Shown here piece by piece: positions 1 through 62,800 of a DNA stretch of 64,000 bases (its first letter is position 1; the number at the start of each line of letters is the position of its first letter). The translations under genes were made by a program, and so were the position numbers. This DNA comes from Eledone cirrhosa (Eukaryota): positions 101,866,001 through 101,930,000 of the forward strand of contig OZ024744.1 in assembly GCA_964016885.1 (NCBI GenBank), given 5' to 3'. The notes beneath the pieces were generated by a model. That model did not search any database and was not told the origin of the DNA. It saw only the letters and a list, made by a program, of their open reading frames with translations.

Positions 1-26
1 GCCTTGTGCCTAAAGTAGAAACAATA
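1..26. other. Only non-satellite sequence in the window; possible array boundary
   Basis: GCCTTGTGCCTAAAGTAGAAACAATA replaces the GTGAAGCTA(A/C)ATATTGTGTCATT found upstream of ATGAATGGCT in all 12 full C blocks. Confidence 0.6.
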
Positions 27-404
27 ATGAATGGCTAAATCTGGTCTTATGAGAAGTTAAAAGTTATAGTCTTATGAGAAGTTGAAAATTGTGGTCTTAT
101 GAGAAGTTAAACATTATTGTCTTATAAGAAGCTAATTATAGTCTTATGCAGAACTAAATATGGTTTTATTGGAAGCTAGATAATACGGTCTTATGAGAAG
201 CTAAATATTATGCTATTATTAGAAGTTGAATATTAGGGTCTTGTGAGCATCTAAACATTATGGTCTTAACAGTAGCTCAATAATATGGTCTTGTGAGAAG
301 CTGAATATTATTGTCTTATAGGAAGCTAAATATTATGGTCTTATGAGAAACTAAATATGGTCTTATTAGAAGCTTAATATTATGGTCTTATGAGAAGATA
401 ATTA
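27..404 (+). repeat. 5'-truncated C block (22/25-bp GGTCTTATGAGAAGCTAAATAT(TAT) monomers)
   Basis: Matches the 3' half of the other C blocks from ATGAATGGCT to GAGAAGATAATTA. It lacks B and the first half of C. Confidence 0.92.
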
Positions 405-2283
405 TGTTTATTGTTGGCATTGTTTATTGTTGGTTTGTTTATTGTTGGCTTTATTTATTGTTGGTTTGTTTATTACTGGCTTTGTTTATTGTTGGTTTGT
501 TTATTGTTGGCTTTGTTTATTGTTGGTTTATTTATTGTTGGCTTTGTTTATTGTTGGTTTGTTTATTGTTGGCTTTGTTTATTGTTGGTTTATTTATTGT
601 TGGTTTGTTTATTGTTGGCTTTGTTTATTGTTTGTTTGTTTATTGCTGGTTTGTTTATTGTTGGTGTATTTATTATTAGCTTTGTTTATTGTTGGCTTTG
701 TTTATTGTTGGTATGTTTATTGTTGGTTTGTTTATTGTTGGCTTTGCTTATTATTGGCTTTATTAATGTTGGTTTGTTTATTGTTGGCTTTGTTTATTGT
801 TGGTTTGTTTATTGATGGTTTGTTTATTGTTGGTTTGTTTATTGTTGGCTTTGTTTATTTTTGGTTTATTTATTACTGGCTTTGTTTATTGTTGGTTTGT
901 TTATTGTTGGCTTTGTTTATTGTTGGTTTGTTATTGTTGGTTTGTTTATTGCTGGCTTTGTTTAATGTTGGTTTGTTTATTGTTGGGTTTTTTTATTGTT
1001 GGATTAGTTTATTGTTGGTTTGTTTATTGTTGGCTTTGTCTATTATTGGTTTGTTTATTGTTGGCTTTTTTATTGCGGGTTTGTTTATTGTTGGCTTTGT
1101 TTGTTTTTGGTTTGTTTATTGTTGGCTTTGTTTATTTTTGGTTTGTTTATTATTGGCTTTGTTTATTGTTGGTTTGTTTACTGTTGGCTTCGTTTATTTT
1201 TGGTTTGTTTATTGTTGGCTTTGTTTATTGTTGGATTTGTTTCTTGTTGGTTTGTTTATAGTTGGCTTTGTTTATTGTTGGCGTTGTTTATTGTTGGCTT
1301 TGTTTATTGTTGGTTTGGTATTATTGGCTTTGTTTACTGTTGGTTTGCTTATTGGAGGCTTTGTTTATTGATGGTTTGTTTATTATTGGCTTGAATTATT
1401 GTTGGCTTGTTTATTGTTGGTTTGTTTATTGTTGGCTTTGTTTAATGTTGGTTTCTTTTTTGGTGGCTTTGTTTATTGTTGATTTGTTTATTGTTGGTTT
1501 GTTTATTGTTGGCCTTGTTTATTGTTGGTTTGTTTATTGTTGGTTTGTTTATTATTAGCTTTGTTTATTGTTGGTTTGTTTATTGTTGGTTTGTTTATTG
1601 TTGGTTTGTTTATTGTTGGCTTTGTTTATTGTTGGTTTGTTTATTGCTGGCTTTGTTTAATGTTGGTTTGTATATTGTTGGCTTTTTATATTGTGGTTTG
1701 TTTATTGTTGGCTTTGTTTATTGTTGGCGTTGTTTATTGTTGGCTTTGTTTATTGTTGGTTTGGTATTATTGGCTTTGTTTACTGTTGGTTTGCTTATTG
1801 GTGGCTTTGTTTATTGATGGTTTGTTTATTGTTGGCTTTGTTTATTGTTGGTTTGTTTATTATTGGCTTGAATTATTGTTGGCTTTTTTATTGTTGGTTT
1901 GTTTATTGTTGGCTTTGTTTATTGTTGGTTTCTTTATTGGTGGCTTTGTTTATTGTTGATTTGTTTATTGTTGGTTTGTTTATTGTTGGCTTTGTTTATT
2001 GTTGGTTTGTTTATTGTTGGCATTGTTTATTGTTGGTTTGTTTATTGTTGGTTTGTTTATTATTAGCTTTGTTTATTGTTGGTTTGTTTATTGTTGGTTT
2101 GTTTATTGTTGGTTTGTTTATTGTTGGCTTTGTTTATTGTTGGTTTGTTTATTGCTGGCTTTGTTTAATGTTGGTTTGTATATTGTTGGCTTTTTTTTAT
2201 TGTGGTTTGTTTATTGTTGGCTTTGTTTATTATTGGCTTGAGTTATTGTTGGTTTGTTTATTGTTGGCTTTGTTTATAGTTGT
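405..2283 (+). repeat. A array 1 (15/16-bp (C)TTTGTTTATTGTTGG), ~1.9 kb
   Basis: Continuous tandem monomers from TGTTTATTGTTGG to TTTATAGTTGT. Confidence 0.96.
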
Positions 2284-39326: not shown

Positions 39327-40218
39327 CAGTCAGTCTAATACTTTACTGTCTATAGTTAGTCTAATACTTTACAGTCTATAGTTAGTCTAATACTTTACTG
39401 TCTTATGAGAAGCTAAATATTATGGGCTTATGAGAAGCTAAGTATTATGGGCTTATGACAAGCTAAATATGGCCTTATGAAATGCTAAATATGGTCTTAT
39501 GAGAAGATAAATATTGTGGTCTTATGAGAAGATAAATATTGTTTTTATGAGAAGCTAAATATTATGGTCTTAACAAAACTTAAATACTTATGAGAAGTTA
39601 AATATTATGGTCTTATGAGAAGCTAAATATGGTCTCAGAAGTTAAATGTGGTCTCATGAGAAGCTGAATAATATGGTCTTATGAGAAGCTAAATATGGTC
39701 TTATGTAAATTCAGATATTATGGTCTTATGAGAAGCTAAATACAGTGTTCTTATGAGAAGCTAATTATGGGCTTATGAGAAGTTAAATCCAACCTTATGA
39801 GAAACTAAACATTATGGTCTCAGAAGCTAAATATTATGCCTGTATTAGAAGTTAAATATGGTCTTATGTGAAGCTACATATTGTGTCATTATGAATGGCT
39901 AAGTCTAGTCTTATGAGAAGTTAAACGTTATCGTCTTATAAGAAGCTAATTATAGTCTTATGCAGAACTAAATATGGTTTTATTGGAAGCTAGATAATAC
40001 GGTCTTATGAGAAGCTAAATATTATGCTCTTATTAGAAGTTGAATATTAGGGTCTTGTGAGCATCTACACATTATGGTCTTAACAGTAGCTCAATAATAT
40101 GGTCTTGTGAGAAGCTGAATAGTATTGTCTGATAGGAAGCTAAATATTATGGTCTTATGAGAAACTAAATATGGTCTTATGAGAAGCTTAATATTATGGT
40201 CTTATGAGAAGATAATTA
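39327..40218 (+). repeat. Spacer module 5: B (39327-39401, lead + 2x26 bp) and C (39402-40218, 817 bp), right-hand subtype
   Basis: Starts CAGTCAGTCTAATACTTT and carries the diagnostic variants CTTAACAAAACTT, GAAATGCT and GCATCTACAC. Confidence 0.95.
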
Positions 40219-43200: not shown

Positions 43201-44267
43201 GTTTGTTTGTTTATTGTTGGCTTTGTTTATTGTTGGTTTGTTTATTGTTGGTTTGTTTATTGTTGGTTTGTATATTGATGGTTTGTTCATTATTGGCTTT
43301 GTTTATTGTTGCTTTGTTTATTGTTGGCTTTGTTTGTTGTTGGTTTGTTTATTGTTGGTTTGTTTATTATTAGCGTTGTTTAATGTTGGTTTGGTTATTG
43401 TTGGTTTGTTTATTGTTGGTTTGTTTATTGTTGGTTTGTTTATTGTTGGCTTTGTTTATTGTTGGGTTTTTTATTGCTGGCTTTGTTCAATATTGGTTTG
43501 TTTATTGTTGTTTTGTTTATTGTTGGTTATGTTTATTGTTGGTTTGTTTATTGTTGGCTTTGTTTATTGTTGGTTTGTTTATTGTTTGTTTGGTTATTGT
43601 TGGCTTTGTTTATTGTTGGTTTGTTTATTGTTGGCTTTTTTTATCGTTGGTTTGTTTATTGTTGGCTTTTTTTATTGTTGGTTTGTTTATTGTTGGCTTT
43701 GTTTATTGTTGGTTTGTTTATTATTGGCTTTGTTTATTGTTGGTTTCTTTATTGTTGGCTTTGTTTATTGTTGTTTTGTTTATTGTTGGCTATGTTTATT
43801 GTTGCTTTGTTTATTGTTGGCTTTGTTTATTGTTGGTTTGTTTATTGTTTGTTTGTTTATTGTTGGCTTTGTTTATTGTTGGTTTGTTTATTGTTGGTTT
43901 GTTTATTGTTGGTTAGTATATTGATGGTTTGTTCATTATTGGCTTTGTTTAGTGTTGCTTTGTTTATTGTTGGCTTTGTTTATTGTTGGTTTGTTTATTG
44001 TTGGCTTTGTTTATTGTTGGTTTGTTTATTGTTGGCTTTGTTTATTATTGGTTTCCTTATTGTTGGTTTTGTTTATTGTTGGTTTGTTTATCGTTAGCTT
44101 TGTTTAATGTTGGATTATTTATTGTTGGTTTTGTTTATTGTCGGTTTCTTTATTGTTGGCTTTGTTTATTGTGTGTTTGTTTATTGTTGGATTTGTTCAT
44201 TTTTGGTTTGTTTATTATTGGCTTTTTTATTGCTGGTATGTTTATTGTTGGCTTTGTTCATTGTTGT
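40219..44267 (+). repeat. A array 6, ~4.0 kb
   Basis: Tandem 15/16-mers. Its tail copies the tail of array 5 at offset 4941. Confidence 0.96.
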
Positions 44268-45107
44268 CAGTCAGTCTAATACTTTACTGTCTTATGAGAA
44301 GCTAAATATTATGGGCTTATGGGAAGCTAAGTATTATGGGCTTATGACAAGCTAAATATGGCCTTATGAAATGCTAAATATGGTCTTATGAGAAGATAAA
44401 TATTGTGGTCTTATGAGAAGATAAATTTTGTTTTTATGAGAAGCTAAGTATTATGGTCTTAACAAAACTTAAATACTTATGAGAAGTTAAATATTATGGT
44501 CTTATGAGAAGCTAAATATGGTCTCAGAAGTTAAATGTGGTCTCATGAGAAGCTGAATAATATGGTCTTATGAGAAGCTAAATATGGTCTTATGTAAATT
44601 CAGATATTATGGTCTTATGAGAAGCTAAATACAGTGTTCTTATGAGAAGCTAATTATGGGCTTATGAGAAGTTAAATCCAACCTTATGAGAAACTAAACA
44701 TTATGGTCTCAGAAGCTAAATATTATGCCTGTATTAGAAGTTAAATATGGTCTTATGTGAAGCTACATATTGTGTCATTATGAATGGCTAAGTCTAGTCT
44801 TATGAGAAGTTAAACGTTATCGTCTTATAAGAAGCTAATTATAGTCTTATGCAGAACTAAATATGGTTTTATTGGAAGCTAGATAATACGGTCTTATGAG
44901 AAGCTAAATATTATGCTCTTATTAGAAGTTGAATATTAGGGTCTTGTGAGCATCTACACATTATGGTCTTAACAGTAGCTCAATAATATGGTCTTTTGAG
45001 AAGCTGAATATTATTGTCTTATAGGAAGCTAAATATTATGGTCTTATGAGAAACTAAATATGGTCTTATGAGAAGCTTAATATTATGGTCTTATGAGAAG
45101 ATAATTA
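44268..45107 (+). repeat. Spacer module 6: B reduced to the 23-bp lead unit (44268-44290) and C (44291-45107)
   Basis: CAGTCAGTCTAATACTTTACTGT runs directly into CTTATGAGAAG. Confidence 0.95.
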
Positions 45108-47462
45108 TGTTTATTGTTGGCTTTGTTTATTGTTGGTTTGTTTATTGTTGGCTTTGTTTATTGTTGGTTTGTTTATTGTTGGCTTTGTTTATTGTTGGTT
45201 TATTTATTGTTGGCTTTGTTTATTGTTGGTTTGTTTATTGTTGGCTTTGTTTATTGTTGCTTTGTTTATTATTGGCTTTGTTTATTGTTGGCTTTGTTTA
45301 TTGTTGGCTTTGTTTATTATTGGCTTTATTTATTGTTGGTATATTTATTGTTGGCTTTGTTTATTGTTAGTTTTGTTTATTGTTTGTTTCTTTATTGTTG
45401 GTTTGTTTATTGTTGGTTTGTTTATTCTTGGCTTTGTTTATTGTTGGTTTGTTTATTGTTGGCTTTGTTTATTGTTGGTTTCTTTATTGTTGGTTTGTTT
45501 ATTGATGGTTTGTCTATTGTTGGTTTGTTTATTGTTGGCTTTGTTTATTGTTGGTTTGTTTATTGTTGGCTTTGTTTTATTGTTGGTTTGTTTATTATTG
45601 GCTTTGTTTATTGTTGGTTTGTTTATTGTTGGCTTTGTTTATTGTTGGTTCGTTTATTGTTGGCTTTGTTTATTGTTGGTTCGTTTATTGTTGGCTTTGT
45701 TTATTGCTGGTTTGTTTATTGTTGGTTTGTTTATTGTTGGTTTGTTTATTGTTGGCTTTGTTTATTGTTTGTTTGTTTATTGTTGGCTTTGTTTAATGTA
45801 CGTTTGTTTATTGTTGGCTTTGTTTATTGTTGGTTTGTTTGTTGTTGGCTTTGTTTATTGTTGGTTTGTTTATTGTTTGCTTTGTTTATTGTTGGTTTGT
45901 TTATTGTTGGCTTTAATTATTGTTGGTTTGTTTATTGTTGGCTTTGTTTATTGTTGCTTTGTTTATTGGTGGCTTTGTTTATTATTAATTTTGTTTATTG
46001 TTGGCTTTGTTTATTGTTGGTTCGTTTATTGTTGGCTTTGTTTATTGTTGGTTTGTTTATTGTTGGTTTGTTTATTGTTGGTTTGTTTATTGTTGGCTTT
46101 GTTTATTGTTGGCTTTGTTTATTGTTACTTTGTTTATTGTTGGCTTTGTTTAATGTACGTTTGTTTATTGTTGGCTTTGTTTATTGTTGGTTTGTTTGTT
46201 GTTGGCTTTGTTTATTGTTGATTTGTTTATTGGTGGCTTTGTTTATTGTGGCTTGGTTTATAGTTGTTTTGTTTATTGTTGGTTTGTTTATTCTTGGTTT
46301 ATTGTTGGTTTGTTTATTGTTGGTTTGTTTATTGATGGTTTGTTTATTGTTGGTTTTTTTATTGTTGGTTCGTTTATTGTTGGCTTTGTTTATTGTTGGT
46401 TTGTTTATTGTTGGTTTGTTTATTGTTGGTTTGTTTATTGTTGGCTTTGTTTATTGTTGGTTTGTTTATTGTTGGCTTTGTTTATTGTTGGTTTGTTTAT
46501 TATTGGCTTTGTTTATTGTTGGTTTGTTTATTGTTGGCTTCGTTTATTTTTGGTTTGTTTATTACTGGATTTGTTTATTGTTGGTTTGTTTATTCTTGGC
46601 TTTGTTTATGTTGGTTTGTTTATTGTTGGTTTGTTTATTGTTGGCTTTGTTTATTGTTGGGTTTTTTATTGCTGGCTTTGTTTAATATTGGTTTGTTTAT
46701 TGTTGGCTTTGTTTATTGTTGTTTTGTTTATTGTTGGCTATGTTTATTGTTGGTTTGTTTATTGTTGGCTTTGTTTATTGTTGGTTTGTTTATTGTTTGT
46801 TTGTTTATTGTTGGCTTTGTTTATTGTTGGTTTGTTTATTGTTGGCTTTTTTTATTGTTGGTTTGTTTATTGTTGGCTTTTTTTATTGTTGGTTTGTTTA
46901 TTGTTGGCTTTGTTTATTGTTGGTTTGTTTATTATTGGCTTTGTTTATTGTTGGTTGTTTTATTGTTGGCTTTGTTTATTGTTGTTTTGTTTATTGTTGG
47001 CTATGTTTATTGTTGGTTTGTTTATTGTTGGCTTTGTTTATTGTTGGTTTGTTTATTGTTTGTTTGTTTATTGTTGGCTTTGTTTATTGTTGGTTTGTTT
47101 ATTGTTGGTTTGTTTATTGTTGGTTTGTTTATTATTAGCGTTGTTTAATGTTGGTTTGGTTATTGTTGGTTTGTTTATTGTTGGTTTGTTTATTGTTGGC
47201 TTTGTTTATTCTTGGTTTGTTTATTGTTGGCTTTGTTTATTATTGGTTTCCTTATTGTTGGTTTTGTTTATTGTTGGTTTGTTTATCGTTAGCTTTGTTT
47301 AATGTTGGATTATTTATTGTTGGTTTTGTTTATTGTCGGTTTCTTTATTGTTGGCTTTGTTTATTGTGGGTTTGTTTATTGTTGGATTTGTTTATTTTTG
47401 GTTTGTTTATTATTGGCTTTTTTATTGCTGGTTTGTTTATTGTTGGCTTTGTTTATTGTTGT
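45108..47462 (+). repeat. A array 7, ~2.4 kb
   Basis: Tandem 15/16-mers. The central part copies array 6 at offset 5169. Confidence 0.96.
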
Positions 47463-48347
47463 CAGTCAGTCTAATACTTTACTGTCTATAGTTAGTCTAA
47501 TACTTTACAGTCTATAGTTAGTCTAATACTTTACTGTCTTATGAGAAGCTAAATATTATGGGCTTATGAGAAGCTAAGTATTATGGGCTTATGACAAGCT
47601 AAATATGGCCTTATGAAATGCTAAATATGGTCTTATGAGAAGATAAATATTGTGGTCTTATGAGAAGATAAATATTGGTTTTATGAGAAGCTAATTATTA
47701 TGGTCTTAACAAAACTTAAATACTTATGAGAAGTTAAATATTATGGTCTTATGAGAAGCTAAATATGGTCTCAGAAGTTAAATGTGGTCTCATGAGAAGC
47801 TGAATAATATGGTCTTATGAGAAGCTAAATATGGTCTTATGTAAATTCAGATATTATGGTCTTATGAGAAGCTAAATACAGTGTTCTTATGAGAAGCTAA
47901 TTATGGGCTTATGAAATCCAACCTTATGAGAAACTAAACATTATGGTCTCAGAAGCTAAATATTATGCCTGTATTAGAAGTTAAATATGGTCTTATGTGA
48001 AGCTACATATTGTGTCATTATGAATGGCTAAATCTAGTCTTATGAGAAGTTAAACATTATCGTCTTATAAGAAGCTAATTATAGTCTTATGCAGAACTAA
48101 ATATGGTTTTATTGGAAGCTAGATAATACGGTCTTATGAGAAGCTAAATATTATGCTCTTATTAGAAGTTGAATATTAGGGTCTTGTGAGCATCTACACA
48201 TTATGGTCTTAACAGTAGCTCAATAATATGGTCTTGTGAGAAGCTGAATAGTATTGTCTGATAGGAAGCTAAATATTATGGTCTTATGAGAAACTAAATA
48301 TGGTCTTATGAGAAGCTTAATATTATGGTCTTATGAGAAGATAATTA
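47463..48347 (+). repeat. Spacer module 7 (B 47463-47537, C 47538-48347)
   Basis: Right-hand subtype with a 7-bp deletion (GGGCTTATGAAATCC). Confidence 0.95.
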
Positions 48348-49133
48348 TGTTTATTGTTGGCTTTGTTTATTGTTGGTTTGTTTATTGTTGGCTTTGTTTA
48401 TTGTTGGTTTGTTTATTGTTGGCTTTGTTTATTGTTGGTTTATTTATTGTTGGCTTTGTTTATTGTTGGTTTGTTTATTGTTGGCTTTGTTTATTGTTGC
48501 TTTGTTTATTATTGGCTTTGTTTATTGTTGGCTTTGTTTATTGTTGGCTTTGTTTATTATTGGCTTTATTTATTGTTGGTATATTTATTGTTGGCTTTGT
48601 TTATTGTTAGTTTTGTTTATTGTTTGTTTCTTTATTGTTGGTTTGTTTATTGTTGGTTTGTTTATTGTTGGTTTGTTTATTGTTGGTTTGTTTATTCTTG
48701 GTTTGTTTATTGTTGGCTTTGTTTATTGTTGCCTTGTTTATTGTTGGCTTTGTTTATTGTTGGTTTGTTTATCGTTGGCTTTGTTTATTGTTGGTTTGTT
48801 TATTGTTGGTTTGTTTATTGTTGGCTTTGTTTATTGTTGGTTTGTTTATCGTTAGCTTTGTTTAATGTTGGTTTGTTTATTGTTGGCTTTGTTTATTGTT
48901 TTTTTGTTTATTGTTGGCTTTGTTTATTGTTGGTTTGTTTATTGTTGGTTTGTTTATCGTTAGCTTTGTTTAATGTTGGATTATTTATTGTTGGTTTTGT
49001 TTATTGTCGGTTTCTTTATTGTTGGCTTTGTTTATTGTGGGTTTGTTTATTGTTGGATTTGTTTATTTTTGGTTTGTTTATTATTGGCTTTTTTATTGCT
49101 GGTTTGTTTATTGTTGGCTTTGTTTATTGTTGT
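48348..49133 (+). repeat. A array 8, 786 bp
   Basis: Tandem 15/16-mers, identical by eye to arrays 9-11. Confidence 0.95.
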
Positions 49134-50018
49134 CAGTCAGTCTAATACTTTACTGTCTATAGTTAGTCTAATACTTTACAGTCTATAGTTAGTCTAATAC
49201 TTTACTGTCTTATGAGAAGCTAAATATTATGGGCTTATGAGAAGCTAAGTATTATGGGCTTATGACAAGCTAAATATGGCCTTATGAAATGCTAAATATG
49301 GTCTTATGAGAAGATAAATATTGTGGTCTTATGAGAAGATAAATATTGGTTTTATGAGAAGCTAATTATTATGGTCTTAACAAAACTTAAATACTTATGA
49401 GAAGTTAAATATTATGGTCTTATGAGAAGCTAAATATGGTCTCAGAAGTTAAATGTGGTCTCATGAGAAGCTGAATAATATGGTCTTATGAGAAGCTAAA
49501 TATGGTCTTATGTAAATTCAGATATTATGGTCTTATGAGAAGCTAAATACAGTGTTCTTATGAGAAGCTAATTATGGGCTTATGAAATCCAACCTTATGA
49601 GAAACTAAACATTATGGTCTCAGAAGCTAAATATTATGCCTGTATTAGAAGTTAAATATGGTCTTATGTGAAGCTACATATTGTGTCATTATGAATGGCT
49701 AAATCTAGTCTTATGAGAAGTTAAACATTATCGTCTTATAAGAAGCTAATTATAGTCTTATGCAGAACTAAATATGGTTTTATTGGAAGCTAGATAATAC
49801 GGTCTTATGAGAAGCTAAATATTATGCTCTTATTAGAAGTTGAATATTAGGGTCTTGTGAGCATCTACACATTATGGTCTTAACAGTAGCTCAATAATAT
49901 GGTCTTGTGAGAAGCTGAATAGTATTGTCTGATAGGAAGCTAAATATTATGGTCTTATGAGAAACTAAATATGGTCTTATGAGAAGCTTAATATTATGGT
50001 CTTATGAGAAGATAATTA
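49134..50018 (+). repeat. Spacer module 8
   Basis: Copy of module 7 at +1671. Confidence 0.95.
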
Positions 50019-50804
50019 TGTTTATTGTTGGCTTTGTTTATTGTTGGTTTGTTTATTGTTGGCTTTGTTTATTGTTGGTTTGTTTATTGTTGGCTTTGTT
50101 TATTGTTGGTTTATTTATTGTTGGCTTTGTTTATTGTTGGTTTGTTTATTGTTGGCTTTGTTTATTGTTGCTTTGTTTATTATTGGCTTTGTTTATTGTT
50201 GGCTTTGTTTATTGTTGGCTTTGTTTATTATTGGCTTTATTTATTGTTGGTATATTTATTGTTGGCTTTGTTTATTGTTAGTTTTGTTTATTGTTTGTTT
50301 CTTTATTGTTGGTTTGTTTATTGTTGGTTTGTTTATTGTTGGTTTGTTTATTGTTGGTTTGTTTATTCTTGGTTTGTTTATTGTTGGCTTTGTTTATTGT
50401 TGCCTTGTTTATTGTTGGCTTTGTTTATTGTTGGTTTGTTTATCGTTGGCTTTGTTTATTGTTGGTTTGTTTATTGTTGGTTTGTTTATTGTTGGCTTTG
50501 TTTATTGTTGGTTTGTTTATCGTTAGCTTTGTTTAATGTTGGTTTGTTTATTGTTGGCTTTGTTTATTGTTTTTTTGTTTATTGTTGGCTTTGTTTATTG
50601 TTGGTTTGTTTATTGTTGGTTTGTTTATCGTTAGCTTTGTTTAATGTTGGATTATTTATTGTTGGTTTTGTTTATTGTCGGTTTCTTTATTGTTGGCTTT
50701 GTTTATTGTGGGTTTGTTTATTGTTGGATTTGTTTATTTTTGGTTTGTTTATTATTGGCTTTTTTATTGCTGGTTTGTTTATTGTTGGCTTTGTTTATTG
50801 TTGT
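50019..50804 (+). repeat. A array 9, 786 bp
   Basis: Copy of array 8 at +1671. Confidence 0.95.
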
Positions 50805-51689
50805 CAGTCAGTCTAATACTTTACTGTCTATAGTTAGTCTAATACTTTACAGTCTATAGTTAGTCTAATACTTTACTGTCTTATGAGAAGCTAAATATTA
50901 TGGGCTTATGAGAAGCTAAGTATTATGGGCTTATGACAAGCTAAATATGGCCTTATGAAATGCTAAATATGGTCTTATGAGAAGATAAATATTGTGGTCT
51001 TATGAGAAGATAAATATTGGTTTTATGAGAAGCTAATTATTATGGTCTTAACAAAACTTAAATACTTATGAGAAGTTAAATATTATGGTCTTATGAGAAG
51101 CTAAATATGGTCTCAGAAGTTAAATGTGGTCTCATGAGAAGCTGAATAATATGGTCTTATGAGAAGCTAAATATGGTCTTATGTAAATTCAGATATTATG
51201 GTCTTATGAGAAGCTAAATACAGTGTTCTTATGAGAAGCTAATTATGGGCTTATGAAATCCAACCTTATGAGAAACTAAACATTATGGTCTCAGAAGCTA
51301 AATATTATGCCTGTATTAGAAGTTAAATATGGTCTTATGTGAAGCTACATATTGTGTCATTATGAATGGCTAAATCTAGTCTTATGAGAAGTTAAACATT
51401 ATCGTCTTATAAGAAGCTAATTATAGTCTTATGCAGAACTAAATATGGTTTTATTGGAAGCTAGATAATACGGTCTTATGAGAAGCTAAATATTATGCTC
51501 TTATTAGAAGTTGAATATTAGGGTCTTGTGAGCATCTACACATTATGGTCTTAACAGTAGCTCAATAATATGGTCTTGTGAGAAGCTGAATAGTATTGTC
51601 TGATAGGAAGCTAAATATTATGGTCTTATGAGAAACTAAATATGGTCTTATGAGAAGCTTAATATTATGGTCTTATGAGAAGATAATTA
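50805..51689 (+). repeat. Spacer module 9
   Basis: Copy of module 7 at +3342. Confidence 0.95.
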
Positions 51690-52475
51690 TGTTTATTGTT
51701 GGCTTTGTTTATTGTTGGTTTGTTTATTGTTGGCTTTGTTTATTGTTGGTTTGTTTATTGTTGGCTTTGTTTATTGTTGGTTTATTTATTGTTGGCTTTG
51801 TTTATTGTTGGTTTGTTTATTGTTGGCTTTGTTTATTGTTGCTTTGTTTATTATTGGCTTTGTTTATTGTTGGCTTTGTTTATTGTTGGCTTTGTTTATT
51901 ATTGGCTTTATTTATTGTTGGTATATTTATTGTTGGCTTTGTTTATTGTTAGTTTTGTTTATTGTTTGTTTCTTTATTGTTGGTTTGTTTATTGTTGGTT
52001 TGTTTATTGTTGGTTTGTTTATTGTTGGTTTGTTTATTCTTGGTTTGTTTATTGTTGGCTTTGTTTATTGTTGCCTTGTTTATTGTTGGCTTTGTTTATT
52101 GTTGGTTTGTTTATCGTTGGCTTTGTTTATTGTTGGTTTGTTTATTGTTGGTTTGTTTATTGTTGGCTTTGTTTATTGTTGGTTTGTTTATCGTTAGCTT
52201 TGTTTAATGTTGGTTTGTTTATTGTTGGCTTTGTTTATTGTTTTTTTGTTTATTGTTGGCTTTGTTTATTGTTGGTTTGTTTATTGTTGGTTTGTTTATC
52301 GTTAGCTTTGTTTAATGTTGGATTATTTATTGTTGGTTTTGTTTATTGTCGGTTTCTTTATTGTTGGCTTTGTTTATTGTGGGTTTGTTTATTGTTGGAT
52401 TTGTTTATTTTTGGTTTGTTTATTATTGGCTTTTTTATTGCTGGTTTGTTTATTGTTGGCTTTGTTTATTGTTGT
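51690..52475 (+). repeat. A array 10, 786 bp
   Basis: Copy of array 8 at +3342. Confidence 0.95.
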
Positions 52476-53360
52476 CAGTCAGTCTAATACTTTACTGTCT
52501 ATAGTTAGTCTAATACTTTACAGTCTATAGTTAGTCTAATACTTTACTGTCTTATGAGAAGCTAAATATTATGGGCTTATGAGAAGCTAAGTATTATGGG
52601 CTTATGACAAGCTAAATATGGCCTTATGAAATGCTAAATATGGTCTTATGAGAAGATAAATATTGTGGTCTTATGAGAAGATAAATATTGGTTTTATGAG
52701 AAGCTAATTATTATGGTCTTAACAAAACTTAAATACTTATGAGAAGTTAAATATTATGGTCTTATGAGAAGCTAAATATGGTCTCAGAAGTTAAATGTGG
52801 TCTCATGAGAAGCTGAATAATATGGTCTTATGAGAAGCTAAATATGGTCTTATGTAAATTCAGATATTATGGTCTTATGAGAAGCTAAATACAGTGTTCT
52901 TATGAGAAGCTAATTATGGGCTTATGAAATCCAACCTTATGAGAAACTAAACATTATGGTCTCAGAAGCTAAATATTATGCCTGTATTAGAAGTTAAATA
53001 TGGTCTTATGTGAAGCTACATATTGTGTCATTATGAATGGCTAAATCTAGTCTTATGAGAAGTTAAACATTATCGTCTTATAAGAAGCTAATTATAGTCT
53101 TATGCAGAACTAAATATGGTTTTATTGGAAGCTAGATAATACGGTCTTATGAGAAGCTAAATATTATGCTCTTATTAGAAGTTGAATATTAGGGTCTTGT
53201 GAGCATCTACACATTATGGTCTTAACAGTAGCTCAATAATATGGTCTTGTGAGAAGCTGAATAGTATTGTCTGATAGGAAGCTAAATATTATGGTCTTAT
53301 GAGAAACTAAATATGGTCTTATGAGAAGCTTAATATTATGGTCTTATGAGAAGATAATTA
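52476..53360 (+). repeat. Spacer module 10
   Basis: Copy of module 7 at +5013. Confidence 0.95.
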
Positions 53361-54146
53361 TGTTTATTGTTGGCTTTGTTTATTGTTGGTTTGTTTATTG
53401 TTGGCTTTGTTTATTGTTGGTTTGTTTATTGTTGGCTTTGTTTATTGTTGGTTTATTTATTGTTGGCTTTGTTTATTGTTGGTTTGTTTATTGTTGGCTT
53501 TGTTTATTGTTGCTTTGTTTATTATTGGCTTTGTTTATTGTTGGCTTTGTTTATTGTTGGCTTTGTTTATTATTGGCTTTATTTATTGTTGGTATATTTA
53601 TTGTTGGCTTTGTTTATTGTTAGTTTTGTTTATTGTTTGTTTCTTTATTGTTGGTTTGTTTATTGTTGGTTTGTTTATTGTTGGTTTGTTTATTGTTGGT
53701 TTGTTTATTCTTGGTTTGTTTATTGTTGGCTTTGTTTATTGTTGCCTTGTTTATTGTTGGCTTTGTTTATTGTTGGTTTGTTTATCGTTGGCTTTGTTTA
53801 TTGTTGGTTTGTTTATTGTTGGTTTGTTTATTGTTGGCTTTGTTTATTGTTGGTTTGTTTATCGTTAGCTTTGTTTAATGTTGGTTTGTTTATTGTTGGC
53901 TTTGTTTATTGTTTTTTTGTTTATTGTTGGCTTTGTTTATTGTTGGTTTGTTTATTGTTGGTTTGTTTATCGTTAGCTTTGTTTAATGTTGGATTATTTA
54001 TTGTTGGTTTTGTTTATTGTCGGTTTCTTTATTGTTGGCTTTGTTTATTGTGGGTTTGTTTATTGTTGGATTTGTTTATTTTTGGTTTGTTTATTATTGG
54101 CTTTTTTATTGCTGGTTTGTTTATTGTTGGCTTTGTTTATTGTTGT
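53361..54146 (+). repeat. A array 11, 786 bp
   Basis: Copy of array 8 at +5013. Confidence 0.95.
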
Positions 54147-55031
54147 CAGTCAGTCTAATACTTTACTGTCTATAGTTAGTCTAATACTTTACAGTCTATA
54201 GTTAGTCTAATACTTTACTGTCTTATGAGAAGCTAAATATTATGGGCTTATGAGAAGCTAAGTATTATGGGCTTATGACAAGCTAAATATGGCCTTATGA
54301 AATGCTAAATATGGTCTTATGAGAAGATAAATATTGTGGTCTTATGAGAAGATAAATATTGGTTTTATGAGAAGCTAATTATTATGGTCTTAACAAAACT
54401 TAAATACTTATGAGAAGTTAAATATTATGGTCTTATGAGAAGCTAAATATGGTCTCAGAAGTTAAATGTGGTCTCATGAGAAGCTGAATAATATGGTCTT
54501 ATGAGAAGCTAAATATGGTCTTATGTAAATTCAGATATTATGGTCTTATGAGAAGCTAAATACAGTGTTCTTATGAGAAGCTAATTATGGGCTTATGAAA
54601 TCCAACCTTATGAGAAACTAAACATTATGGTCTCAGAAGCTAAATATTATGCCTGTATTAGAAGTTAAATATGGTCTTATGTGAAGCTACATATTGTGTC
54701 ATTATGAATGGCTAAATCTAGTCTTATGAGAAGTTAAACATTATCGTCTTATAAGAAGCTAATTATAGTCTTATGCAGAACTAAATATGGTTTTATTGGA
54801 AGCTAGATAATACGGTCTTATGAGAAGCTAAATATTATGTTCTTATTAGAAGTTGAATATTAGGGTCTTGTGAGCATCTACACATTATGGTCTTAACAGT
54901 AGCTCAATAATATGGTCTTGTGAGAAGCTGAATAGTATTGTCTGATAGGAAGCTAAATATTATGGTCTTATGAGAAACTAAATATGGTCTTATGAGAAGC
55001 TTAATATTATGGTCTTATGAGAAGATAATTA
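54147..55031 (+). repeat. Spacer module 11
   Basis: Copy of module 7 at +6684, with one visible substitution at 54840 (TTATGTTCTT versus TTATGCTCTT). Confidence 0.95.
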
Positions 55032-56000
55032 TGTTTATTGTTGGCTTTGTTTATTGTTGGTTTGTTTATTGTTGGCTTTGTTTATTGTTGGTTTGTTTAT
55101 TGTTGGCTTTGTTTATTGTTGGTTTGTTTATTCTTGGCTTTGTTTATGTTGGTTTGTTTATTGTTGGTTTGTTTATTGTTGGCTTTGTTTATTGTTGGGT
55201 TTTTTATTGCTGGCTTTGTTTAATATTGGTTTGTTTATTGTTGGCTTTGTTTATTGTTGTTTTGTTTATTGTTGGCTATGTTTATTGATGGTTTGTTTAT
55301 TGTTGGCTTTGTTTATTGTTGGTTTGTTTATTGTTTGTTTGTTTATTGTTGGCTTTGTTTATTGTTGGTTTGTTTATTGTTGGCTTTTTTTATTGTTGGT
55401 TTGTTTATTGTTGGCTTTTTTTATTGTTGGTTTGTTTATTGTTGGCTTTGTTTATTGTTGGTTTGTTTATTATTGGCTTTGTTTATTGTTGGTTGTTTTA
55501 TTGTTGGCTTTGTTTATTGTTGTTTTGTTTATTGTTGGCTATGTTTATTGTTGGTTTGTTTATTGTTGGCTTTGTTTATTGTTGGTTTGTTTATTGTTTG
55601 TTTGTTTATTGTTGGCTTTGTTTATTGTTGGTTTGTTTATTGTTGGTTTGTTTATTGTTGGTTTGTTTATTATTAGCGTTGTTTAATGTTGGTTTGGTTA
55701 TTGTTGGTTTGTTTATTGTTGGTTTGTTTATTGTTGGCTTTGTTTATTCTTGGTTTGTTTATTGTTGGCTTTGTTTATTATTGGTTTCCTTATTGTTGGT
55801 TTTGTTTATTGTTGGTTTGTTTATCGTTAGCTTTGTTTAATGTTGGATTATTTATTGTTGGTTTTGTTTATTGTCGGTTTCTTTATTGTTGGCTTTGTTT
55901 ATTGTGGGTTTGTTTATTGTTGGATTTGTTTATTTTTGGTTTGTTTATTATTGGCTTTTTTATTGCTGGTTTGTTTATTGTTGGCTTTGTTTATTGTTGT
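55032..56000 (+). repeat. A array 12, 969 bp (chimera of the common array head and the array-7 tail)
   Basis: The first ~94 bp match the array-8 head. The remainder matches 46570-47462 at offset 8538. Confidence 0.93.
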
Positions 56001-56885
56001 CAGTCAGTCTAATACTTTACTGTCTATAGTTAGTCTAATACTTTACAGTCTATAGTTAGTCTAATACTTTACTGTCTTATGAGAAGCTAAATATTATGGG
56101 CTTATGAGAAGCTAAGTATTATGGGCTTATGACAAGCTAAATATGGCCTTATGAAATGCTAAATATGGTCTTATGAGAAGATAAATATTGTGGTCTTATG
56201 AGAAGATAAATATTGGTTTTATGAGAAGCTAATTATTATGGTCTTAACAAAACTTAAATACTTATGAGAAGTTAAATATTATGGTCTTATGAGAAGCTAA
56301 ATATGGTCTCAGAAGTTAAATGTGGTCTCATGAGAAGCTGAATAATATGGTCTTATGAGAAGCTAAATATGGTCTTATGTAAATTCAGATATTATGGTCT
56401 TATGAGAAGCTAAATACAGTGTTCTTATGAGAAGCTAATTATGGGCTTATGAAATCCAACCTTATGAGAAACTAAACATTATGGTCTCAGAAGCTAAATA
56501 TTATGCCTGTATTAGAAGTTAAATATGGTCTTATGTGAAGCTACATATTGTGTCATTATGAATGGCTAAATCTAGTCTTATGAGAAGTTAAACATTATCG
56601 TCTTATAAGAAGCTAATTATAGTCTTATGCAGAACTAAATATGGTTTTATTGGAAGCTAGATAATACGGTCTTATGAGAAGCTAAATATTATGCTCTTAT
56701 TAGAAGTTGAATATTAGGGTCTTGTGAGCATCTACACATTATGGTCTTAACAGTAGCTCAATAATATGGTCTTGTGAGAAGCTGAATAGTATTGTCTGAT
56801 AGGAAGCTAAATATTATGGTCTTATGAGAAACTAAATATGGTCTTATGAGAAGCTTAATATTATGGTCTTATGAGAAGATAATTA
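56001..56885 (+). repeat. Spacer module 12 (B 56001-56075, C 56076-56885)
   Basis: Copy of module 7 at +8538. Confidence 0.95.
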
Positions 56886-59800
56886 TGTTTATTGTTGGCT
56901 TTGTTTATTGTTGGTTTGTTTATTGTTGGCTTTGTTTATTGTTGGTTTGTTTATTGTTGGCTTTGTTTATTGTTGGTTTATTTATTGTTGGCTTTGTTTA
57001 TTGTTGGTTTGTTTATTGTTGGCTTTGTTTATTGTTGCTTTGTTTATTATTGGCTTTGTTTATTGTTGGCTTTGTTTATTGTTGGCTTTGTTTATTATTG
57101 GCTTTATTTATTGTTGGTATATTTATTGTTGGCTTTGTTTATTGTTAGTTTTGTTTATTGTTTGTTTCTTTATTGTTGGTTTGTTTATTGTTGGTTTGTT
57201 TATTGTTGGTTTGTTTATTGTTGGTTTGTTTATTCTTGGTTTGTTTATTGTTGGCTTTGTTTATTGTTGCCTTGTTTATTGTTGGCTTTGTTTATTGTTG
57301 GTTTGTTTATCGTTGGCTTTGTTTATTGTTGGTTTGTTTATTGTTGGTTTGTTTATTGTTGGCTTTGTTTATTGTTGGTTTGTTTATCGTTAGCTTTGTT
57401 TAATGTTGGTTTGTTTATTGTTGGCTTTGTTTATTGTTTTTTTGTTTATTGTTGGCTTTGTTTATTGTTGGTTTTTTTATTGTTGGCTTTGTTTATTGTT
57501 GGTTTGTTTATTGTAGGCTTTGTTTATTGTTGCTTTGTTTATTATTGGCTTTGTTTATTATTGATTGTTTATTGATGGCTTTGTTTATTGTTGATTTTGT
57601 TTATTGTTGGCTTTGTTTATTTTTGGTTTGTTTATTATTAGCTCTGTTTATTGTTGGTTTTTTTATTGTTGACTTTGTTTATTGTTGGTTTGTTTATTGT
57701 TCGCTTTGTTTATTGTTGGTTTGTTTATTGTTGGCGTTGTTTATTGTTTTTTTGTTTATTGTTGGTTTATTTATTGTTGGCTTTGTTTATTGTTGGTTTG
57801 TTTATTGTTGGCTTTTTTTATTGTTGGCTTTGTTTATTGTTGGCTTTGTTTATTGTTGTCTTTGCTTATTGTTGGCTTTGTTTATTGTTGTTTTGTTTAT
57901 TGTTCGTTTGTTTATTATTGGCTTTGTTTATTGTTGGTTTGTTTATTCTTGGCTTTGTTTATTGTTGGTTTGTTTATTGTTGGCTTTGTTTATTGTTGGT
58001 TTGTTTATTGTTGGCTTTGTTTATTGTTAGTTTGTTTATTATTGGCTTGGTTTATTGTTGGTTTGTTTATTGTTGGCTTTGTTTATTTTTGGTTTATTTA
58101 TTGTTGGCTTTGTTTATTGTTGGTTTGTTTATTGTTGGCTTTGTTTATTGTTGGTTTGTTTATTTTTGGCTTTGTTTATTGTTGGTTTGTTTATTGTTGG
58201 CTTTCTTTATTGTTGGCTTTGTTTATTGTTGGTTTGTTTATTATTAGCTCTGTTCCTTGTTGGTTTGTTTATTTTTTGCTTTGTTTTTTGTTGGCTTTGT
58301 TTATTGTTGATTTTGTTTATTGTTGGCTTTGTTTATTGTTGGCTTTGTTTATTGTTGGCTTTGTTTATTGTTGGTTTGTTTATTGTTGGCTTTGTTTATT
58401 GTTGGTTTGTTTATTGTTGGCTTTGTTTATTGTTAGTTTGTTTATTATTGGCTTGGTTTATTGTTGGTTTGTTTATTTTTGGCTTTGTTTATTGTTGGTT
58501 TTTTTATTGTTGGCTTTGTTTATTGTTGGTTTATTTATTGTTGGCTTTGTTTATTGTTGGTTTGTTTATTGTTGGCTTTGTTTATTGTTGGTTTGTTTAT
58601 TGTTGGCTTTGTTTATTGTTGGTTTGTTTATTGTTGGCTTTCTTTATCGTTGGCTTTGTTTATTGTTGCTTTGTTTATTGTTGTCTTTGTTTATTGTTGG
58701 TTTGTTTATTGTTGGCTTTCTTTATTGTTGGTTTGTTTATTGTTGGTTTGTTTATTGTTGGCTTTGTTTATTGTTGGTTTGTTTTTTGTTGGCTTTGTTT
58801 ATTGTTGTCTTTTTTTATTGTTGGCTTTGTTTATTGTTGGCTTTGTTTGTTGTTGGCATTGTTTATTATTGGCTTTGTTTATTGTTGGTTTATTTATTGT
58901 TGGCTTTGTTTATTGTTGGTTTCGTTTATTGTTTGTTTATTGTTGGTTTGTTTATTGTTGATTTGTTTATTTTTGGTTTGTTTATTGTTGATTTGTTTAT
59001 TGTTGGTTTGTTTATTGTTGTTTTGGTTATTGTTGGCTTTGTTTATTGTTGTCTTTGTTTATTGTTGGTTTGTTTATTGTTGGCTTTGTTTATTGTTGGT
59101 TTGTTTATTGTTGGCTTTGTTTATTGTTGGTTTGTTTATCGTTAGCTTTGTTTAATGTTGGTTTGTTTATTGTTGGCTTTGTTTATTGTTGGTTTGTTTA
59201 TTGTTGGCTTTGTTTATTGTTGGTTTATTTATTGTTGGCTTTGTTTATTGTTGGTTTGTTTATTGTTGGCTTTGTTTATTGTTGCTTTGTTTATTATTGG
59301 CTTTGTTTATTATTGGTTTGTTTATTGATGGCTTGTTTATTGTTAGTTTGTTTAATGTTGGCTTTCTTTATTTTTGGTTTCTTTATTATTAGCTCTGTTT
59401 ATTTGTTGCTTTGTTTATTGTTGGCTTTGTTTATTGTTGATTTGTTTATTGTTCGCTTTGTTTATGGTTGGTTTGTTTATTGTTGGCTTTGTTTATTGTT
59501 TTTTTGTTTATTGTTCATTTGTATATTGTTGGCTTTGTTTATTGTTGGTTTGTTTATTGTTGGCTTTGTTTATTGTTGGCTTTGTTTATTATTGGCTTTG
59601 TTTATTGTTGGTTTATTTATTGTTGGCATTGTTTATTGTTGATTTTGTTTATTGCTTGTTTCTTTATTGTTGGTTTGTTTATTGTTGGTTTGTTTATTGT
59701 TGATTTGTTTATTGTTGGTTTGTTTATTGTTGGTTTGTTTATTGTTGGCTTTGTTTATTGTTGGCTTTGTTTATTGTTGGTTTGTTTATTGTTGGCTTTG

Positions 59801-62800
59801 TTTATTGTTGGCTTTGTTTATTGTTGGTTTGTTTATTGTTGGCTTTGTTTATTGTTGGTTTGTTTATTGTTGGCTTTGTTTATTGTTGGTTTATTTATTG
59901 TTGGCTTTGTTTATTGTTGGTTTCTTTATTGTTGGCTTTGTTTATTGTTGCTTTGTTTATTATTGGCTTTGTTTATTATTGGTTTCGTTTATTGATGGCT
60001 TTGTTTATTGTTAGTTTGTTTATTGTTGGCTTTGTTTATTTTTGGTTTGTTTATTATTAGCTCTGTTTATTGTTGGCTTTGTTTATTTTTTGCTTTGTTT
60101 ATTGTTGGCTTTGTTTATTGTTGATTTTGTTTATTGTTGGCTTTGTTTATTGTTGGCTTTGTTTATTGTTGGTTTGTTTATTGTTGGTTTTGTATATTGT
60201 TGGTTTATTTATTGTTGTCTTTGTATATTGTTGGTTTGTTTATTGTTGGCTTTGTTTATTGTTGGCTTTGTTTATTATTAGCTTTGTTTATTGTTGGCTT
60301 TGTTTATTGTTGATTTTGTTTATTGTTGGCTTTGTTTATTGTTGCTTTGTTTACTGTTCCTTTGTTTATTGTTGGCTTTGTTTATTGTTGCTTTGTTTAT
60401 TATTGGCTTTGTTTATTGTTGATTTTGTTTATTGTTGGCTTTGTTTATTGTTGGCTTTGTTTATTGTTGGTTTGTTTATTGTTGGTTTTGTATATTGTTG
60501 GTTTGTTTATTGTTGTCTTTGTATATTGTTGGTTTGTTTATTGTTGGCTTTGTTTATTGTTGGTTTGTTTATTATTAGCTTTGTTTATTGTTGGCTTTGT
60601 TTATTTTTGGCTTTGTTTATTGTTGGCTTTGTTTATTGTTGATTTTGTTTATTGTTGGCTTTGTTTATTGTTGGTTTGTTTACTGTTCCTTTGTTTATTG
60701 TTGGCTTTGTTTATTGTTGCTTTGTTTATTATTGGCTTTGTTTATTATTGGTTTGTTTATTGATGGCTTTGTTTATTGTTAGTTAGTTTATTGTTGGCTT
60801 TGTTTATTTTTGGTTTGTTTATTATTAGCTCTGTTTATTGTTGGCTTTGTTTATTTTTGGCTTTGTTTATTGTTGGCTTTGTTTATTGTTGATTTTGTTT
60901 ATTGTTGGCTTTGTTTATTGATGGCTTTGTTTATTGTTGGTTTGTTTATTGTTGGTTTTGTTTATTGTTGGTTTGTTTATTGTTGGGTTTGTATATTGTT
61001 TGGTTTGTTTATTGTTGGCTTTGTTTATTGTTGGTTTGTTTTTTGTTGGCTTTGTTTATTGTTGGTTTATTTATTGTTGGCTTTGTTTATTGTTGGTTTG
61101 TTTATTGATGGCTTTGTTTATTGTTAGTTTGTTTATTGTTGGCTTTGTTTATTTTTGGTTTGTTTATTATTAGCTTTGTTTATTGTTGGCTTTGTTGATT
61201 GTTGATTTTGTTTATTGTTGGCTTTGTTTATTGTTGGCTTTGTTTATTGTTGGTTTGTTTATTGTTGGTTTTGTTTATTGTTGGTTTGTTTATTGTTGGT
61301 TTGTTTATTGTTGGTTTTGTTTATTGTTGGTTTGTTTATTGTTGGTTTGTTTATTGTTGGCTTTGTTTATTGTTGGTTTGTTTATTGTTTGTTTGTTTAT
61401 TGTTGGCTTTGTTTATTGTTGGCTTTGTTTATTATTGGCTTTGTTTATTGTTGGTTTGTTTATTGTTGGCTTTATTTATTTTTGGTTTGTTTATTGTTGG
61501 CTTTATTTATTGTTGGTTTGTTTATTGTTGGCTTTGTTTATTGTTGGCTTTGTTTATTGTTGGTTTATTTATTGTTGGCTTTGTTTATTGTTGGTTTCGT
61601 TTATTGTTTGTTTATTGTTGGTTTGTTTATTGTTGGTTTGTTTATTGTTGGTTTGTTTATTGTTGATTTGTTTATTGTTGGTTTGTTTATTGTTGATTTG
61701 TTTATTGTTGGTTTGTTTATTGTTGGTTTGGTTATTGTTGGCTTTGTTTATTGTTGTCTTTGTTTATTGTTGATTTGTTTATTGTTGGCTTTGTTCATTG
61801 TTGGTTTGTTTATTGTTGGCTTTGTTTATTGTTGGTTTGTTTATCGTTAGCTTTGTTTAATGTTGGTTTGTTTATTGTTGGCTTTGTTTATCGTTGGTTT
61901 GTTTATTGTTGGCTTTGTTTATTGTTGGTTTATTTATTGTTGGCTTTGTTTATTGTTGGTTTGTTTATTGTTGGCTTTGTTTATTGTTGCTTTGTTTATT
62001 ATTGGCTTTGTTTATTATTGGTTTGTTTATTGATGGCTTGTTTATTGTTACTTTGTTTAATGTTGGCTTTGTTTATTTTTGGTTTGTTTATTATTAGCTC
62101 TGTTTATTGTTGCTTTGTTTATTGTTGGCTTTGTTTATTGTTGGTTTGTTTATTGTTGGCTTTGTTTATTGTTGGTTTTGTTTATTGTTTGTTTATTGTT
62201 GGTTTGTTAATTGTTCATTTGTTTATTGTTGGTTTTAATTATTGTTCATTTGTTTATTGTTGGTTTGTTTATTGTTGGTTTGGTTATTGTTGGCTTTGTT
62301 TATTGTTGTCTTTGTTTATTGTTGGTTTGTTTAATGTTGGCTTTGTTTATTCTTGGTTTGTTTATTATTAGCTCTGTTTATTGTGGCTTTGTTTATTGTT
62401 GGCTTTGTTTATTGTTGGTTTGTTTATTGTTCGCTTTGTTTATGGTTGGTTTGTTTATTGTTGGCTTTGTTTATTGTTGGCTTTGTTTATTGTTGGCTTT
62501 GTTTATTGTTGATTTATTTATTGTTGGCTTTGTTTATTGTTGGTTTGTTTATTGATGGCTTTGTTTATTGTTAGTTTGTTTATTGTTGGCTTTGTTTATT
62601 TTTGGTTTGTTTATTATTAGCTTTGTTTATTGTTGGCTTTGTTGATTGTTGATTTTGTTTATTGTTGGCTTTGTTTATTGTTGGCTTTGTTTATTGTTGG
62701 TTTGTTTATTGTTGGTTTTGTTTATTGTTGGTTTGTTTATTGTTGGTTTGTTTATTGTTGGTTTTGTTTATTGTTGGTTTGTTTATTGTTGGTTTGTTTA

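Follow-up and report, generated by a model that had tools for sequence, protein, structure and literature searches.

How did six near-identical copies of one short module come to stand side by side in a satellite of Eledone cirrhosa, joined to one another in two different ways? The window, a stretch of 64,000 nucleotides on contig OZ024744.1 (positions 101,866,001 to 101,930,000; coordinates below count from its first letter unless otherwise given), belongs to a noncoding satellite of about 407 kb (C28:101,527,000-101,934,461) whose basic monomers are A (15/16 bp), B (26 bp), and C (25 bp). Within it, positions 46570-57474 (10,905 bp; 10.9 kb) hold six copies of a B+C module, each carried in a block of ~1.7 kb, with two junction types between them. 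The assembled layout is L-X-U-U-U-U-U[1..1179]-X'-U-R, with the following parts:

46570-47262, plus strand: X, 693 bp of A monomers, recurring exactly at +8538 except at 46750
47263-48933, plus strand: U1, the 1671-bp unit, made of 197 bp of A, then B, C, and 584 bp of A
About 47460-47539, plus strand: B in U1, a 26-bp repeat
47536-48349, plus strand: C in U1, a repeat of about 25 bp
48934-50604, 50605-52275, and 52276-53946, plus strand: U2, U3, and U4, each identical to U1 (exact run at +1671)
48933/48934, 50604/50605, 52275/52276, and 53946/53947, plus strand: J1, the 1671-bp join, with a 3-bp exact overlap at 48934-48936
53947-55125, plus strand: U5, cut to the first 1179 bp of the unit and stopping 92 bp past the end of C, with a private T at 54840
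55108-55125 (the same as 46570-46587), plus strand: J2, an 18-bp overlap where the right flank of U5 and the first bases of X' coincide
55108-55800, plus strand: X', the second copy of X, with a derived A at 55288
55801-57474, plus strand: U6, complete and identical to U1; the +8538 run stops at 48936/57474, 3 bp beyond the J1 position
From 57475, plus strand: R, A monomers, the presumed ancestral right flank

This structure is directly visible when the sequence is compared with itself at exact offsets. At +1671, the match runs from 47263 to 53454 with a single mismatch (53169 versus 54840), giving a periodic tract of 7863 bp, or 4.7 units, at 47263-55125; at +1854, positions 53947-55125 match exactly apart from 54840; and at +8538, positions 46570-48936 match exactly with the sole exception of 46750 versus 55288. 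The last of these offsets equals 4 x 1671 + 1854, as a preliminary description of this DNA had stated, and the recurrence of 46570-48936 reported there is confirmed. Every unit contains one B+C module (B starts at 47460, 49131, 50802, 52473, 54144, and 55998), all module copies are arranged head-to-tail on the plus strand, and U1 to U4 are mutually 100% identical, far above the matches that TRF gave between monomers (71 to 73% for A and 69% for C). A chance match is of no concern, since the 5906-bp exact run at 47263-53168 (offset +1671) is the longest of 137 exact repeat runs found in 464 kb.

J1, which had been placed at about 48920-48950 and lies at 48933/48934, is identical to the base at all four of its sites, which indicates that it was made once and then copied. 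The join yields an intact 15-nt monomer from parents that are 1 nt apart in phase. A gapped test of phase gave 0.83 for J1 against a null mean of 0.81, a value reached or exceeded by 38% of random pairs because gaps rescue pairs that are out of phase; the phase argument for J1 is thus carried solely by the intact monomer at the join. J2 occurs once in the block, through the 18-bp shared monomer at 55108-55125 that the preliminary description had also pointed out. Its parents are in register: across 90 bp on the left and 25 bp on the right, they are 91% identical; without gaps and within 30 bp on either side, the figure is 85%, and only 1.2% of 20,000 position pairs drawn at random from A arrays score that high or higher. 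Both joins leave A monomers intact, and the proposal of two different breakpoint pairs, each inside A monomers and each enclosing B+C, is supported. Since J2 is found only once, however, the figure of 1854 bp, which had been taken for an amplification unit, names a junction and no amplified unit; J2 is equally describable as an 8538-bp duplication present in 1.28 copies. The 1671-bp array sits to the left of J2, and outside the array, unit positions 1180-1671 occur solely in front of R. On these grounds, unless re-insertion is invoked, the array would be older than J2.

Two older paralogues of the module stand to the left of the block, both compared here with the five U copies in which the 54840 site is C:

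39324-40220, plus strand: c39, which differs by 4 substitutions and one 7-bp indel
44265-45109, plus strand: c44, which differs by 9 substitutions, the loss of two B monomers (a 52-bp deletion), and the 7-bp indel also seen in c39

In a tree of modules, U1 to U6 form a terminal clade, sister to c39 and c44. The paralogues also resemble the block outside the module: c39 and U1 have about 1000 bp of left flank in common, and c44 matches U1 over about 850 bp on the left and 300 bp on the right. Flanks of 800 to 1000 bp on the left and 100 to 300 bp on the right were copied together with B+C. X is homologous to the left flanks of both paralogues; it is the left flank that the module had ancestrally, and the 8538-bp repeat has its first copy there.

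The paralogues also polarize the differences within the block. Comparison of the copies revealed two substitutions in 10,905 bp, whereas the copies had been described as identical except at 54840. That position is T in U5 only and C in the other five units and in both older paralogues; the second substitution, missed previously, is A at 55288, where 46750 and both older paralogues have T. With so few differences, the copies are very recent, as had been proposed. There is no graded divergence among the U units, and stepwise growth and a single burst are therefore indistinguishable.

The block is nothing special in its locus, where several duplications are equally young (0 to 0.07% substitutions). 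In the 464 kb scanned, the 137 exact runs of at least 300 bp have offsets of 683 to 10,686 bp, and some of them lie in pure A and pure B arrays with no B+C module. Among 16 aligned unit pairs, substitution levels between units ranged from 0 to 5.3%: a 2606-bp unit in a pure B array showed 0%; units of 6045, 9144, 7489, 2989, and 1447 bp showed 0.05 to 0.07%; and the remaining levels were graded (0.16%, 0.35%, 0.6%, 1.1%, 1.4%, and 5.3%). Amplification does not require B+C, since equally young multikilobase duplications lie in pure A and pure B arrays. Over a distance of 280 kb, 27 modules have an identical boundary from C to A, from which it follows that segmental duplication carried modules and flanks along together. 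Across the 3.0-Gb genome, a 59-nt A-dimer string has 366 exact matches, every one inside the locus and on the plus strand; among the module matches listed (150 of 360), all are on C28, and eight copies (U1 to U6, c39, and c44) have 98 to 100% identity. Two distant module pairs have the same spacing of 4889 bp, and an old large duplication was considered as the source; identity outside the modules is that of the A-array background (82 to 90%), and we treat the equal spacing as coincidental. The 18 open reading frames of at least 120 amino acids were also rejected as genes: all have TTG starts, are on the plus strand, and run over stop-free A arrays, some reaching a few bases into B, as mechanical by-products. 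Among the papers listed in a limited literature search on the 11-nt A core (full text) and on octopus satellite DNA or tandem repeats, none describes this satellite, and those listed for the A core deal with unrelated subjects.

The block is a nested tandem duplication within a composite satellite, and we consider it likely (probability of about 0.7) that it was produced by very recent out-of-register homologous exchange between A monomers. Exchange here covers unequal sister-chromatid or interallelic crossing-over as well as break-induced re-invasion. From the junctions and flanks, we infer the following order of events. Starting from an ancestral L-X-U-R arrangement, a misaligned exchange would have joined an A monomer 584 bp downstream of C to one 197 bp upstream of B, creating J1 and the 1671-bp repeat. 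The resulting perfect repeats would then have gained copies through exchange shifted by whole units. Finally, a second misaligned exchange, linking A DNA of U5 that lies 92 bp downstream of C to A DNA 890 bp upstream of B, would have produced J2. The partner in this last step may have had only one U, as an unamplified allele would, or else the second block may later have shrunk back to one unit; with exchange alone, the single U to the right of J2 demands one of these added assumptions.

Ordinary out-of-register exchange accounts for every feature seen, and circles and rolling-circle copying are not required, although the sequence is compatible alike with sister-chromatid exchange, interallelic crossing-over, break-induced replication, and homologous re-insertion of circles. 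Independent template switching repeated at each copy, as once suggested, is unlikely given four J1 joins identical to the base, and break-induced replication in a single event on a one-copy template was rejected on similar grounds, as the same 3-bp-overlap junction would need four independent origins. Extrachromosomal circles are a rival explanation: a 1671-bp circle closed at J1 and an 1854-bp circle closed at J2 would have been excised from L-X-U-R, the former copied by rolling circle, and both returned by homologous re-entry. Four identical J1 joins are what rolling-circle copies are expected to show, and, reasoning from the layout, if a U multimer re-entered the left copy by homologous recombination, J2 could have preceded J1, and the outcome would be exactly the layout observed. 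The block is nevertheless no concatemer of one circle, as 675 bp of X', foreign to the 1671-bp unit, lie within the 8538 bp whose removal would restore L-X-U-R. Thus, the rolling-circle reinsertion put forward in the preliminary description fails for a single circle while staying compatible with the sequence for circles in general. Two separate circles and two re-insertions would be needed, exchange explains every junction equally well, and young duplications abound in the locus at periods of 0.68 to 10.7 kb, two-copy ones included, for which no amplification step is needed. We therefore regard the involvement of circles as unlikely, and a history in which two B+C-bearing circles underwent rolling-circle replication and then returned through homologous recombination, all in the last few tens of thousands of generations, is quite unlikely.

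No sequence is harder to assemble than perfect repeats, and the 1671-bp array might have been over-expanded, or J2 might be a false join between an amplified allele ending in U5 and an unamplified allele starting in X; such a haplotype switch would also leave amplified sequence to the left of J2 and a single U with R to its right. The contigs of one other sample carry only 0.33 to 0.37 of the sampled words of the stretch. One of them, 310 bp long, has 4 differences from each assembled copy, so haplotype or individual variation does exist. For positions 54650-55200, the contigs of that sample (310 bp at most) include a 116-bp piece exact to the U type, and among the pieces shown none bridges J2 with 31 letters on each side. 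A RAD-seq run (X4) contributed 7 reads over the same positions, which were uninformative. Against an artefact, there are 0 N in the window and in the 460 kb around it, the 10.9-kb amplified block is within reach of a single long read, a false join through sequence overlap would need more than 18 bp, and two private substitutions and the second junction provide unique markers for the block; among the matches listed (150 of 360, all C28), there is no second contig with the module. An assembly error is thus an improbable source of the structure. Very improbable is repeated insertion of B+C into the A array as a mobile element or as an RNA element, self-cleaving or structured in some other way: positions 46000-50000 have no Rfam match at an E value of 1 or below, the unit lacks terminal inverted repeats (its sole inverted repeat is a 16-nt palindrome), flanks were copied along with the module, the boundary from C to A is the same in 27 modules, and the module occurs at this locus only among the matches listed (150 of 360).

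Higher-order repeats are known from primate alpha-satellite, and the block is a new case of a known class, the satellite higher-order repeat or tandem segmental duplication. As in such repeats, units of many monomers follow one another head-to-tail, identity between units (100%) greatly exceeds that between monomers, and younger duplications are nested in older ones; the monomer frame is clearly kept at J2 and may be kept at J1. In contrast, the monomers of the block are very short (15/16, 26, and 25 bp), its unit combines three unrelated monomer families in only 5 to 6 copies, and the locus has no single fixed period, with values from 0.68 to 10.7 kb depending on the place.

The accepted routes of satellite turnover, as outlined in PMC8122249, are unequal crossing-over, replication slippage, break-induced replication, and rolling circle, with the unequal-crossover model for satellites credited there to Smith 1976. 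The same source notes that out-of-register break-induced replication has been proposed for centromeric satellites and described for rDNA. That process would likewise yield identical junction copies and a rapid gain of whole units in a perfect array, but the present locus has no sign of a replication barrier, centromere function, or transcription, and the analogy is mechanistic only. PMC8122249 also cites a proposal in which extrachromosomal circular satellite DNA is amplified by rolling circle and then re-inserted. Such circles share with the block a single closure junction copied many times, whereas the block would need two different circles, and the two-copy duplications of many sizes in the locus call for none.

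Overall, the many equally young duplications in the same locus indicate that the block reflects ordinary satellite turnover and gives no pointer to a new mechanism. If circles were nonetheless responsible, this satellite, restricted to a single chromosome locus, would lend itself naturally to catching circle-mediated amplification in progress. The block offers a clean, base-resolved snapshot of the birth of a new higher-order unit in a satellite, in which the order of events may be read from the sequence because the ancestral flanks L, X, and R, both junctions, and two older paralogues have been preserved. Confinement to one locus of a 3.0-Gb genome makes typing of copy number and junctions by PCR or long reads straightforward.

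The 64-kb window is satellite DNA throughout. Its G+C content is ~28%, and its two strands differ strongly in composition (GC skew of +0.44 to +0.74; AT skew as low as -0.78). Three repeat families were recognized in it by TRF:

A: 15/16-bp monomer, with a 31-bp dimer built from it
B: 26-bp monomer, ~3 copies per module
C: ~25-bp monomer, ~35 copies per module, 69% matches

In the assembly (3.0 Gb in 1796 contigs), the window occupies positions 101866001-101930000 of contig C28, and 460 kb of its surroundings was examined. The satellite forms one locus of ~407 kb, from ~C28:101,527,000 to 101,934,461, which begins on the left with a pure B-type array (26-bp monomer) of ~50 kb (C28:101,527-101,577 kb) and continues through a mixed B/C/A zone into long A arrays broken up by B+C modules. 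All 366 exact genome-wide matches to a 59-nt A-dimer string fall within this locus and on the + strand; the B+C module has 360 matches, and all 150 of those listed are on C28. The C-to-A boundary string is the same in 27 modules across 280 kb, and the modules therefore spread with their flanks instead of being inserted separately. Each of the 18 long ORFs is TTG started and on the + strand; they lie over stop-free A arrays and were rejected as genes, being by-products of those arrays. No description of this satellite was found among the papers listed on octopus satellite DNA or tandem repeats or among those listed as mentioning the A core.

A 10.9-kb block (46570-57474) of repeated modules lies ~12 kb inside the right-hand boundary of the satellite. 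In self-comparison, the match at offset +1671 is exact over 47263-53454, giving a periodic tract at 47263-55125 (4.7 units) with 53169 versus 54840 as its sole mismatch; the match at +1854 is exact over 53947-55125, 54840 excepted; and that at +8538 is exact over 46570-48936, with the exception of 46750 versus 55288. The parts of the block and the two older paralogues to its left are as follows:

46570-47262: X, A monomers
47263-48933: U, the repeated unit, with 197 bp of A, B+C at 47460-48349, and 584 bp of A
48933/48934: J1, the first junction type, a 3-bp exact overlap with four occurrences, the same to the base
55108-55125: J2, the second junction type, an 18-bp overlap with a single occurrence, joining 92 bp past the end of C to 890 bp before B
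39324-40220: c39, of the same young module family as U
44265-45109: c44, of the same young module family as U

The block thus reads L-X-U-U-U-U-U(1..1179)-X'(from base 19)-U-R, X' being the second copy of X and L and R the flanks. The +8538 match stops at 57474 (equivalent to 48936), merely 3 bp beyond the J1 position, so the best reading is that R, the ancestral right flank, begins at 57475 and that the final unit (U6) has stayed joined to R. The preliminary description had reported the block coordinates, the relation 8538 = 4 x 1671 + 1854, and the 18-bp overlap at 55108-55125, all of which were reproduced by exact self-comparison. It had also considered the copies identical save for 54840, which needs correction, as 46750 versus 55288 is a second substitution. 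Only the fifth unit carries T at 54840 and only X' carries A at 55288, and comparison with c39 and c44 indicates that both are derived.

In a tree of 27 modules of ≥600 bp, drawn from 45 anchors found, U1 to U6 form a terminal clade whose sister is c39 and c44. When compared with the five U copies that carry C at 54840, c39 and c44 share a 7-bp indel; c39 has four substitutions besides, and c44 has nine, together with a deletion of two B monomers (52 bp). The flank common to U1 and both paralogues extends 800 to 1000 bp to the left and 100 to 300 bp to the right. The first 300 bp right of C is 100% identical in c44 and U (45110-45410 versus 48350-48650), with ~1% of sites differing in the B+C modules themselves, a hint that the unit underwent gene conversion or is mosaic in origin. 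A stretch of ~145 bp (46465-46610) contains three independent left-hand limits of copied segments, namely, c39/U1 at ~46465, J2 at 46570-46587, and c44/U1 at ~46600-46609; this clustering could reflect a preferred exchange site 850 to 1000 bp upstream of B, or chance. A spacing of exactly 4889 bp occurs in two module pairs 248 kb apart (C28:101,657,138-101,662,027 and 101,905,384-101,910,273), which in alignment show only background identity outside the modules, and is probably a coincidence.

The parents of J2 are 85% identical over ±30 bp in ungapped alignment and 91% identical over 90 bp on the left plus 25 bp on the right, and 85% is reached by only 1.2% of 20,000 random A-array position pairs. 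J2 is therefore clearly homology guided. The J1 join leaves an ordinary 15-nt A monomer, and its two parents are one base out of phase. With gaps allowed, the phase test scored J1 at 0.83 (null mean, 0.81) and does not discriminate. J1 is compatible with guidance by homology. Near both unit ends (47280-47307 and 48844-48871, 1564 bp apart) is a 28-bp rare A variant (GTTTATCGTTAGCTTTGTTTAATGTTGG), and the register of this pair does not fit the 1671-bp join.

Since J1 is identical in all four occurrences, it would have arisen once and been copied afterwards; four independent template switches, which would not each hit the same base, were rejected. Unit positions 1180 to 1671 occur outside the array only before R, the array lying left of J2, and a J1-making tandem duplication after J2 would have put the array on the right-hand side of J2. 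If exchange alone was at work, the array is therefore older than J2: J1 would have formed once, the 1671-bp array would have grown by copying, and J2 would have followed, either with a one-U chromatid as partner or with later contraction of the second block. A single-U partner is plausible as an unamplified allele while the expansion was still new. We give recent out-of-register homologous exchange a probability of roughly 70% as the origin of the block.

The preliminary description had favored reinsertion of circles or repeated break-induced template switching; its structural part stands, and the special mechanism is not needed. Homologous reinsertion of U multimers, circular or linear, would permit the reverse order, with J2 before the array, and circles are on that account compatible with the sequence. 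A single circle cannot give the block, because the 8538 bp to be removed to leave L-X-U-R includes 675 bp of X', and we consider the circle route unlikely. It is similarly doubtful that the block is an assembly artefact, given the lack of N's in the window and surrounding sequence, its total size of 10.9 kb, the shortness of the 18-bp overlap, which would not suffice for a false join by overlap, and the two private substitutions. A mobile or RNA element is highly improbable, with no Rfam family matching 46000-50000 at E ≤ 1 and no terminal inverted repeat found; any other explanation takes up the remainder.

Contigs of one other sample (three runs) contain 0.33 to 0.37 of the sampled words of 54000-57700. 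Among its short contigs on 54650-55200, no piece shown bridges J2, and one of 116 bp shows no difference from the U type. A 310-bp contig (54746-55055) carries four differences (C at 54840, A at 54881, T at 54935, and T at 54944) and matches no assembled copy; this sample thus has one or more module variants that the assembly lacks, indicating module variation between haplotypes or individuals.

The 464 kb scanned holds 137 exact repeat runs of ≥300 bp, at offsets of 683 to 10,686 bp, and 16 unit pairs were aligned for substitution levels. U1 and U2 differ by 0% and X+U1 and X'+U6 by 0.04%. A 2606-bp unit of pure B array (C28:101,568,327-101,573,560, with neither A nor C) has 0 substitutions in 2574 bp and is as young as the 1671-bp array. 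Units of 6045, 9144, 7489, 2989 (pure A), and 1447 bp (pure A) show 0.05 to 0.07%, the last being a tandem duplication at window positions 61066-63682 with one substitution and three gap events in ~1443 bp; two 1913-bp units show 0.16%, and the remaining pairs show 0.35, 0.6, 0.73, 1.1, 1.4, and 5.3%. Graded divergence, earlier named as favoring stepwise unequal crossover, is seen across the locus, with no gradient among the six units. A second nested amplification of similar style lies at C28:101,612,300-101,631,300, where anchor spacings of 1913, 1913, 1022, and 887 recur; its 1913-bp units (3 substitutions/1912 bp between neighbors) lie in a ~7.5-kb super-unit repeated at least two times (5 substitutions/7391 bp).

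As standard routes of satellite turnover, PMC8122249 names unequal crossing-over, slippage during replication, break-induced replication out of register, and reinsertion of circles copied by rolling-circle replication; it cites Smith's unequal-crossover model. The block has the character of a newly arisen higher-order repeat. Unlike a textbook one, it combines three kinds of very short monomer, its copy number appears low, and periods in this locus vary by place. In both exact run length (5906 bp) and copy count the 1671-bp array ranks first, and it is one among many equally young multi-kilobase tandem duplications, several of them without B+C, so that enclosing B+C is not required.
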